DNA of 64,000 bases, from assembly GCF_003991155.1 (NCBI RefSeq), contig NZ_CP031295.1; one strand, written 5' to 3'. Every line of letters begins with the position of its first letter. Position 1 is the first letter of the stretch. Made by a program: the position numbers. The DNA comes from Escherichia coli. GTDB lineage: Bacteria; Pseudomonadota; Gammaproteobacteria; Enterobacterales; Enterobacteriaceae. Positions 24,001-27,000 of this stretch are shown here, piece by piece.

Positions 24001-27000
24001 TCTCTTCGTCACAGCAGGACACCGACCAGTACGGCATGAAACTGACTCTGAACAGCAAACCGATGGACGGCTGGCAAATCACCTGGGGGCTGGATGCTGA
24101 TCATGAGCGCTTTACCTCCAACCAGATGTTCTTCGACCTGGCTCAGGCAAGCGCTTCCGGAGGGCTGAACAACAAGAAGATTTACACCACCGGGCGCTAT
24201 CCGTCGTATGACATCACCAACCTGGCGGTCTTCCTGCAATCAGGCTATGACATCAATAATCTCTTTACCCTCAACGGTGGCGTACGCTATCAGTACACTG
24301 AAAACAAGATTGATGATTTCATCGGCTACGCGCAGCAACGGCAGATTGCCGCCGGGAAGGCTACATCCGCCGACGCCATTCCTGGCGGCTCAGTCGATTA
24401 CGACAACTTCCTGTTCAACGCCGGTCTGCTGATGCACATCACCGAACGCCAGCAGGCATGGCTCAACTTCTCCCAGGGCGTGGAGCTGCCGGACCCGGGT
24501 AAATACTATGGTCGCGGCATCTATGGTGCTGCAGTGAACGGCCATCTTCCTCTAACAAAGAGTGTGAACGTCAGCGACAGCAAGCTGGAAGGCGTGAAAG
24601 TCGATTCTTATGAGCTGGGCTGGCGCTTTACTGGCAATAATCTGCGTACCCAAATCGCGGCCTACTATTCGATTTCTGATAAGAGCGTGGTGGCGAATAA
24701 AGATCTGACCATCAGCGTGGTGGACGACAAACGCCGTATTTACGGCGTGGAAGGTGCGGTGGACTACCTGATTCCTGATACTGACTGGAGTACCGGAGTG
24801 AACTTCAACGTGCTGAAAACTGAGTCGAAAGTGAACGGTACCTGGCAGAAATACGATGTGAAGACAGCAAGCCCATCAAAAGCGACAGCCTACATTGGCT
24901 GGGCACCGGACCCGTGGAGTCTGCGCGTGCAGAGCACCACCTCCTTTGACGTGAGCGACGCGCAGGGCTACAAGGTCGATGGCTATACCACCGTGGATCT
25001 GCTCGGCAGTTATCAGCTTCCGGTGGGTACACTCAGCTTCAGCATTGAAAACCTCTTCGACCGTGACTACACCACTGTCTGGGGGCAGCGTGCACCACTG
25101 TACTACAGCCCGGGTTACGGCCCAGCGTCACTGTACGACTACAAAGGCAGGGGCCGAACCTTTGGTCTGAACTACTCTGTGCTGTTCTGACCGGTATTCC
25201 TTTACAACAAAGGTACGCTGATATCAACATGGCCGCTGACAGCCAAGTTGATATCATATAATACACGACATAATCTGTAGTCAGGGAGGATAGACTCTTT
25301 ACTGACTACAGATTATGTCGTGTTCCGTGCTCATTTCCTCAAAAAAATACAAGAAAAGAATTAGTATTCTAACAAAAAGTGAAATAAATTGTATCAAACT
25401 CCCTCTTTTAATCCTGTTGAGTAAATCAGCTTTTGCAATAGGATTGAAAGAGTGTAAGTGGAATCTCTTCCGGATACTCGTTACCACCGTGGCTAGAATA
25501 TCTACGGCTGCGGGCCAGTAATAGATTAAGTGATAACAGCTGTCTGGAAATGTAGGGGCGTATCCACTAATCATAATCATTGTGAGATAAATATTACGGG
25601 GCATTTTATAATGAATAAAGGTGATGCTGCCAACTTACTGATTTAGTGTATGATGGTGTTTTTGAGGTGCTCCAGTGGCTTCTGTTTCTATCAGCTGTCC
25701 CTCCTGTTCAGCTACTGACGGGGTGGTGCGTAACGGCAAAAGCACCGCCGGACATCAGCGCTATCTCTGCTCTCACTGCCGTAAAACATGGCAACTGCAG
25801 TTCACTTACACCGCTTCTCAACCCGGTACGCACCAGAAAATCATTGATATGGCCATGAATGGCGTTGGATGCCGGGCAACTGCACGCATTATGGGCGTTA
25901 GCCTCAACACGATTTTACGTCACTTAAAAAACTCAGGCCGCAGTCGGTAACCTCGCGCATACAGCCGGGCAGTGACGTCATCGTCTGCGCGGAAATGGAC
26001 GAACAGTGGGGATACGTCGGGGCTAAATCGCGCCAGCGCTGGCTGTTTTACGCGTATGACAGGCTCCGGAAGACGGTTGTTGCGCACGTATTCGGTGAAC
26101 GCACTATGGCGACGCTGGGGCGTCTTATGAGCCTGCTGTCACCCTTTGACGTGGTGATATGGATGACGGATGGCTGGCCGCTGTATGAATCCCGCCTGAA
26201 GGGAAAGCTGCACGTAATCAGCAAGCGATATACGCAGCGAATTGAGCGGCATAACCTGAATCTGAGGCAGCACCTGGCACGGCTGGGACGGAAGTCGCTG
26301 TCGTTCTCAAAATCGGTGGAGCTGCATGACAAAGTCATCGGGCATTATCTGAACATAAAACACTATCAATAAGTTGGAGTCATTACCGCCTTGACCATCA
26401 GATAGTTATTTTGGTGCTAGGGATACTGAGTGTGAACAGTTAGCGCGCGTCCTCGCCAGTTAGCTCGCTACGCTCGGTTACACGACGGCTACGAGTACTA
26501 GTGATAATTATTGACTGAGGTATGTGCTCTTCCTGTTTCCTTTTTTGATGTGTTGCTCTCATTTTAAACAACTTTGCGGTTTTTTGACTACTTTGCAATT
26601 TTGTTGTTGCTTTGCAATAAAATGCAAGATTAAATGAAAATATGCAAAGCAATGATTAAAGGATGTTCAGAATGAGACTCATGGAAACACTTAACCAGTG
26701 CATAAACGCTGGTCATGAAATGACGAAGGCTATCGCCATTGCACAGTTTAATGATGACAGCCCGGAAGCGAGGAAAATCACCCGACGCTGGAGAATAGGT
26801 GAAGCAGCGGATTTAGTTGGAGTATCTTCTCAGGCTATCAGGGATGCCGAGAAAGCAGGCCGGCTACCGCACCCGGATATGGAAATACGAGGACGGGTTG
26901 AGCAACGTGTTGGTTATACAATTGAACAAATTAATCATATGCGTGACGTGTTTGGTACGAGACTACGACGTGCTGAAGACGTATTTCCGCCGGTGATTGG

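Follow-up and report, generated by a model that had tools for sequence, protein, structure and literature searches.

Why should a virulence operon on a plasmid end in a copy of the repeats that sit beside that plasmid's replication gene? The question is raised by a 64,000-nucleotide stretch (the window) of Escherichia coli contig NZ_CP031295.1 (assembly GCF_003991155.1), which belongs to a ColV-type IncF virulence plasmid. Between iutA, the ferric aerobactin receptor gene, and a copy of the insertion sequence IS1, the window carries a perfect inverted repeat of 61 bp. By its sequence and geometry this palindrome is a true iteron pair of the RepFIB family, the family of the replicon found elsewhere on the same plasmid. 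We call the pair orphan because it lies 18.8 kb from the replicon and adjoins no rep gene. We favour the view that it is a relic of RepFIB-family control iterons, fused behind iutA, which in ColV plasmids probably still binds the RepA initiator as a weak handcuffing or incompatibility site.

An inverted iteron pair behind iutA

The palindrome begins 73 nt past the iutA stop, on the sense strand. Its arms are 100% complementary and 22 nt long, one more than the 21 bp of the initial annotation, which had the 17-bp spacer exactly. Its parts are as follows:

25263..25284, + strand: left arm, with iteron core ATAATCTGTAGTCAG at 25270-25284
25285..25301: spacer GGAGGATAGACTCTTTA, 17 nt, the same length as in the repA-proximal RepFIB pair
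25302..25323, - strand: right arm, with a minus-strand iteron core at 25302-25316

A chance palindrome was ruled out by simulated windows and shuffles. In 100 Markov-1 simulated windows (spacer of up to 60 nt) the longest perfect inverted-repeat arm did not exceed 14 nt, against 22 nt here, and the iteron core ATAAnCTGTAGTCAG was not found at 0 mismatches in any of 100 dinucleotide-preserving shuffles. In the window, the core is present without mismatch at exactly four sites, 6430-6444 (+), 6462-6476 (-), 25270-25284 (+) and 25302-25316 (-). All remaining window sites with up to two mismatches fall within the RepFIB clusters 6215-6404 and 7612-7670; sites with exactly three mismatches add 7635-7649 in the upstream cluster, three IS1 ends and one isolated site. 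The orphan is thus the window's only remote site of its kind, and its arms carry no mismatches, whereas most other iteron-like sites of the RepFIB clusters carry one to three.

The remaining two perfect sites form the inverted pair that follows repA in the RepFIB replicon:

6215-6476: RepFIB downstream iterons, whole block
6215-6229, 6263-6277 and 6390-6404 (span 6215..6404), + strand: further downstream (control) RepFIB iterons, each with one or two mismatches to the core
6428..6478, - strand: inverted iteron pair immediately behind the RepFIB repA stop, 17-nt spacer; cognate paralogue of the orphan pair
6479..7456, - strand: repA, RepFIB initiator, 325 aa, Pfam Rep3_N (WH1); presumed binder of the orphan pair
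7612..7670, - strand: upstream (origin-side) RepFIB iterons
7824-7832: DnaA box TTATCCACA near the upstream RepFIB iterons

The core and inverted geometry that the initial annotation had seen in common between the two pairs hold up in alignment. The arms agree at 30-31 of 34 positions, the spacers are of identical length, and the orphan spacer matches that of its own plasmid's RepFIB at 10 of 17 positions and that of the E. albertii RepFIB at 13 of 17. The repA-proximal arms differ from each other; the orphan arms are identical. Homology to RepFIB is limited to 17 nt of each arm (25268-25284 on the left) and the partly similar spacer, and the outer 5 nt of the orphan arms (ACACG / CGTGT) lengthen the palindrome past this alignable part. 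We infer that the perfection of the outer arms may stem from self-correction of the palindrome by template switching.

The same arrangement recurs in related replicons. We scanned contigs, one genome per species, for CTGTAGTCAG-N14-20-CTGACTACAG. The matches included RepFIB variants (E. albertii, one Escherichia sp. and two metagenome bins), each with the pair directly 3' of the repA stop; the scan also returned unrelated myxobacterial, cyanobacterial and other-taxon sequences that share the 10-mer arms only. Aligned with five RepFIB variants over 51 bp, the orphan shows 41-43 identities in the better orientation, which is always repA-then-pair. The inverted geometry with a 17-nt spacer is common to the orphan, to 6428-6478 and to the post-repA pairs of four other RepFIB variants.

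RepA matches Pfam Rep3_N (WH1) with E = 1.2e-10, and is thus a Rep_3-family iteron-binding initiator; the match to Rep3_C is weak. Pfam Rep3_N provides its only identification, as NCBIfam release 20 has no matching model at E <= 0.01 for the product of 6479-7456 and a sequence search against solved structures gave no match.

We found no remnant of a rep gene beside the orphan in 25191-25619, where the open reading frames 25299-25604 (-) and 25315-25521 (+) have no NCBIfam match. A BLAST search of 25233-25612 for distant relatives returned only the IS2-like end at 25496-25576 and the RepFIB pair, and 25324-25495 holds no further degenerate iterons. A parent replicon with iterons that, as in the orphan, have T at the variable core position was not found in PLSDB, the phage collection, viral contigs or genome contigs; viral contigs, scanned by 15-mer, had 63 single matches, consistent with chance, and the phage collection gave none.

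Strict linkage to the plasmid-borne iutA gene

We searched PLSDB with a 75-bp query, counting both strands as places per record, and obtained three classes of match. The first comprises 831 records with 100% identity, mostly E. coli ColV-type plasmids, with four places per record (the orphan and the RepFIB pair) in 14 of 14 sampled rows. The second comprises about 604 Klebsiella records with 91.4% identity and two places per record. The third consists of RepFIB pairs with 82-88% identity, typically at record positions 979-1027, just after repA. The Klebsiella copy differs from the ColV-type copy through a tandem duplication of 6 bp (AGATTA) and a single substitution in the right arm, so that its arms show 0 and 1 mismatch against the core.

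The full-length copies in PLSDB (831 + 4 + 604) match the number of plasmid-type iutA 3' ends (835 + 607). It follows that the orphan is tied strictly to iutA; a dispersed repeat, a miniature inverted-repeat transposable element and the end of an insertion sequence are ruled out by these counts, and there were no phage matches. RefSeq and PLSDB carry no annotation at the site. Full-text literature searches returned no description of an iteron near iutA, an earlier mention in older REPI/RepFIB papers being possible.

The pair is older than the neighbouring IS1

The initial annotation had placed the pair between iutA and IS1, about 19 kb from repA. Indeed, IS1 starts at 25620, and the distance is 18.8 kb to the repA-proximal pair and 17.8 kb to the repA start. 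The genes and elements on either side are these:

22989..25190, + strand: iutA, ferric aerobactin receptor gene
25496..25570, + strand: right-end remnant of an IS2-like (IS3-family) element; many plasmids carry IS2/IS3-family ends with 80-90% identity to it
25620..26387, + strand: IS1 bounding the aerobactin region, with sopAB next; no 9-bp target duplication (ATGAATAAA vs GCCTTGACC)
26663-28809: sopAB, followed by the leading and tra regions

ColV and Klebsiella plasmids remain homologous from iutA through 25577, just past the outer end of the IS2-like element at 25570, after which unrelated Klebsiella genes follow. The segment 25191-25577 is thus also present on Klebsiella virulence plasmids that lack the IS1 junction, and the pair is therefore older than the IS1 at 25620. 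This bears on the proposal of the initial annotation that the pair is the scar of a deleted replicon beside IS1. Homology to a replicon stands, but the tie to IS1 or to an adjoining deletion does not, given the Klebsiella plasmids without the junction and a decayed homologue on chromosomes (see below). Any replicon truncated at the 25620 IS1 would be located on the opposite, sopAB side.

The junction itself shows further features. The missing target duplication suggests an IS1-mediated rearrangement or deletion, and sopAB follows IS1 with no replicon in front of it. By eye, the IS2-like remnant (reverse complement TGGATACGCCCCTACATTTCCAGACAGCTGTTATCAC) seems to hold, on the + strand, the last codons of a transposase gene (orfB).

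Decay of the pair at chromosomal aerobactin loci

Immediately upstream of the orphan lies a second inverted repeat:

25219..25256, + strand: iutA 3' hairpin, a separate neighbouring element, arms 25219-25233 and 25242-25256

The initial annotation had described it as a 10-bp repeat at about 25220..25257; it is real and longer, with 15-nt arms that contain one mismatch (93% complementary) around an 8-nt loop. The hairpin is kept, with three compensatory base-pair changes, in the ColV, Klebsiella, chromosomal and diverged plasmid aerobactin lineages, and is probably the conserved 3' structure of the aerobactin operon. The orphan palindrome, in contrast, is not kept in chromosomal or diverged loci. 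The initial annotation had held that a widespread conserved iutA terminator would speak against iterons; the comparison of loci does not refute the iteron assignment, because the conserved hairpin is the upstream repeat.

Complete E. coli genomes yielded 1952 iutA 3' ends; in the 1048 of these that are chromosomal, megablast homology breaks off near 25232. The chromosomal segment after the hairpin is nonetheless a diverged homologue of 25257-25330: in global alignment it scores 15, where 1000 shuffles gave a mean of 4.1 (sd 1.8) and a maximum of 11. In our own alignment, about 14 of the 17 iteron-arm positions are preserved in its right arm, CTGAATAACATTATGT; the left arm has mostly decayed. 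Measured against the RepFIB consensus, which serves as an external reference, plasmid-type arms have 0 mismatches in 28; in our alignment the chromosomal arms have about 3 and about 7 per 17-nt arm. This asymmetry is suggestive only: it fits constraint on plasmids and would also fit unequal branch lengths.

A two-armed consensus pair with the right spacing is implausible as a chance product of non-iteron sequence. Most likely, therefore, it was already present in the common ancestor of these lineages, and drift removed it from the chromosomal copies. The decayed trace in chromosomal islands argues for a plasmid origin of those loci. More generally, the pair records a past event in the evolution of an important virulence locus: at one time the aerobactin operon of the plasmid type adjoined a RepFIB-family replicon at its control-iteron end.

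We also noted that two E. coli chromosomes (L004 and L005) have iutA 3' ends 97.7% and 85.5% identical to the ColV gene (window 24800-25232), and downstream regions that are nearly alike. This pattern suggests that recombination has occurred, with its breakpoint at the 3' end of iutA or the hairpin, or close by. On NZ_CP076707.1, a diverged E. coli IncFIB aerobactin plasmid, and on the Klebsiella virulence plasmid NZ_CP016815.1, iutA is followed by DUF417, TetR and DUF1471-type genes, in opposite orientations; this neighbourhood may be the older plasmid context that was removed by IS1 in ColV plasmids.

A probable relic that may still bind RepA

In our reading the pair is a paralogue of the head-to-head pair behind repA, at which the downstream control block starts, detached from any rep gene. 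The fusion behind the iutA 3' hairpin would have taken place in the ancestor of the plasmid-borne aerobactin locus, before the divergence of the ColV and Klebsiella lineages and the arrival of IS1, and the operon would then have carried the pair along as a relic. On ColV plasmids, where RepFIB is 18 kb off on the same molecule, we infer that RepA would bind the pair, one monomer per arm. The orphan sites would thereby add to the control iterons available for handcuffing, the pairing with origin iterons, and the outcome would be a slightly lower copy number and a minor incompatibility determinant.

Titration or handcuffing of RepA by the pair is plausible, because both arms are at consensus and because the downstream FIB iteron block alone displaces a FIB replicon, which the upstream block does not (PMC11983097). 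Replication control and incompatibility reside in the downstream block (PMC11983097). A single additional site can have an effect of the proposed type: the copy number of RK2 (IncP-1) rises 1.5- to 2-fold on loss of a region holding one extra TrfA iteron (PMC11983097). That site, iteron 10 of oriV, resembles the orphan in being an extra initiator site outside the main cluster. It differs in its initiator (TrfA), in being a single site beside the origin, and in having an experimentally shown function, while the effect of the orphan is a proposal from sequence. The iterons of mini-F (RepFIA) incC and P1 incA are alike in the proposed mechanism, by which initiator-bound iterons pair with origin iterons and block initiation (PMC11983097), but they are five to nine direct repeats beside the rep gene rather than one distant inverted pair.

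The closest relatives are the RepFIB downstream control iterons themselves (E to K; P307, F, pO157, ColV; REPI of pColV-K30). The orphan shares with them the core, at 0 mismatches, the head-to-head geometry, the 17-nt spacer and part of its sequence, and the plasmid. It differs from them in lying 18.8 kb away behind a virulence operon, without flanking direct iterons or a rep remnant, in being a perfect 22-nt palindrome with T at the variable position where the replicon arms are unequal, and in its presence on plasmids without a RepFIB of matching type.

Several observations weigh against a strong role for the pair. Both orphan arms have T at the variable core position, where nearly all tabulated RepFIB iterons have A or G and none has T. 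Two orphan sites may be functionally negligible against the at least six control iterons beside repA. On Klebsiella plasmids the orphan persists, mildly altered, without a cognate replicon. The one such plasmid that was scanned whole, the virulence plasmid NZ_CP016815.1, has the orphan as its sole match to the RepFIB core; the iterons of both its replicons differ, the IncFIB(K) replicon having AATATTGACTG-type iterons on both sides of rep, and the IncHI1B replicon (134612-135376) nineteen tandem 42-bp repeats beside the rep gene. Conversely, the pair is decayed on an IncFIB plasmid (L086, NZ_CP076707.1) with a diverged iutA of 84.7% identity. Retention therefore does not require RepFIB. Among ColV copies, identity across the entire flanking region of 380-430 bp is at least 99%, and their conservation is thus silent on selection. 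Finally, an IS26 insertion in the spacer is tolerated on one plasmid, NZ_CP115325.1 (pCUVET17-1136.1, from dog-urine E. coli): at 2244-3001 the match to the window restarts at 25295, mid-spacer, straight after IS26, so that the pair is split.

Some of these observations lend weight to an inert fossil, that is, a replicon remnant without measurable activity, whose perfection would come from recent common ancestry, and perhaps palindrome self-correction, rather than from selection. The near-identity of the ColV copies over 380-430 bp gives no signal of constraint, persistence beside unrelated iterons and the tolerated IS26 are as expected of such a remnant, and identity of the arms for 5 nt beyond the RepFIB-aligned 17 nt is not demanded by RepA binding. 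We nevertheless regard this explanation as a good deal less probable than residual binding, though a serious possibility. Plasmid-type arms have kept a perfect match to the RepFIB consensus where the chromosomal arms have not, although a shorter branch could also explain this, and in a cell where RepA is made, one would expect it to occupy consensus sites. If the pair is inert, it is a well-dated molecular fossil. If RepA does bind it, it would be a natural example of a control iteron lodged in a virulence island at a distance from its replicon, and would matter for how ColV plasmids control their copy number, for the typing of FIB incompatibility and for the design of iteron-based plasmid-curing cassettes.

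A bolder extension of residual binding, which we think unlikely, would make the aerobactin locus the carrier of a portable RepFIB incompatibility and copy-control site. In ColV plasmids the site would loop to the origin 18 kb off and tune copy number; elsewhere, including in Klebsiella, it would titrate the RepA of incoming ColV- or F-type FIB plasmids and so act as a barrier to their establishment.

Unlikely alternatives: RNA structure and secondary origin

Somewhat less likely again is that the palindrome acts as RNA, as a second 3' stem-loop of the iucABCD-iutA mRNA (a terminator or a block to exonucleases), its likeness to iterons being incidental. Its position on the sense strand, 73 nt past the iutA stop, would suit such a role, as would the 22-bp stem and the predicted folding of the 158-nt region (-65.7 kcal/mol, z = -9.5). 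However, neither repeat has a T-tract or a match to a terminator pattern, and the sequence that follows the orphan stem is TCCGTGCTCATTTCC. No Rfam family reached its gathering score at the orphan; the only matches were to miRNA precursors, at 20-23 bits against gathering scores of 74-171, which is what any long hairpin gives. The covarying structure is the upstream hairpin, and the palindrome is lost in chromosomal and diverged loci. Moreover, the 0-mismatch core in both arms and the equal spacer length would be inexplicable by chance. As an iutA terminator in particular the palindrome is ruled out, since the conserved 3' structure with covariation is the hairpin at 25219-25256.

At the R6K alpha and beta origins, isolated single or half iterons kilobases from the main cluster interact by initiator-mediated looping and activate distant origins. 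A remote secondary origin or enhancer of this sort, activated by RepA looping to the RepFIB origin, is very improbable here, even though an AT-rich stretch (25320-25440, 27.5% GC) directly flanks the pair and its sites are at consensus: there are just two sites, and these are inverted; the surroundings contain no direct repeats and no DnaA box within 6 kb (the nearest are at 18986 and 33986); 25324-25495 adds no degenerate iterons; and Klebsiella plasmids without the cognate initiator carry the same segment.

A Fur box, judged from sequence only, was also rejected, as the CATAAT and ATTATG hexamers are too widely separated.

Other features of the window

On the plasmid, the RepFIB downstream block is preceded by a recombinase gene, and the upstream iterons are followed by an IS1 and further genes:

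5454-6194, + strand: tyrosine recombinase gene
After the upstream iterons: IS1, then sitABCD, crcB, a gene for a transporter of the MFS family, and iucABCD

The IS1 ends that resemble the iteron core with three mismatches (ATAAGTTGGAGTCAT) lie at 3336-3350, 9374-9388 and 26369-26383. We read this resemblance as chance; the matches also reveal two IS1 copies that bracket the RepFIB replicon.

The window holds further long perfect inverted repeats. One with 21-nt arms, GCTCCGGTGTGGGCTGTGGTG, and a 25-nt spacer (16459-16525) lies inside the MFS transporter gene (15890-17083, - strand) upstream of iucA, which is unusual for a coding region. Three others are found at 35027-35082 (27-nt arms, 2-nt spacer), 29940-30015 (25-nt arms, 26-nt spacer) and 15576-15629 (23-nt arms, 8-nt spacer). 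The first two of these lie in the leading and transfer region; the third, just after crcB, could be a terminator.

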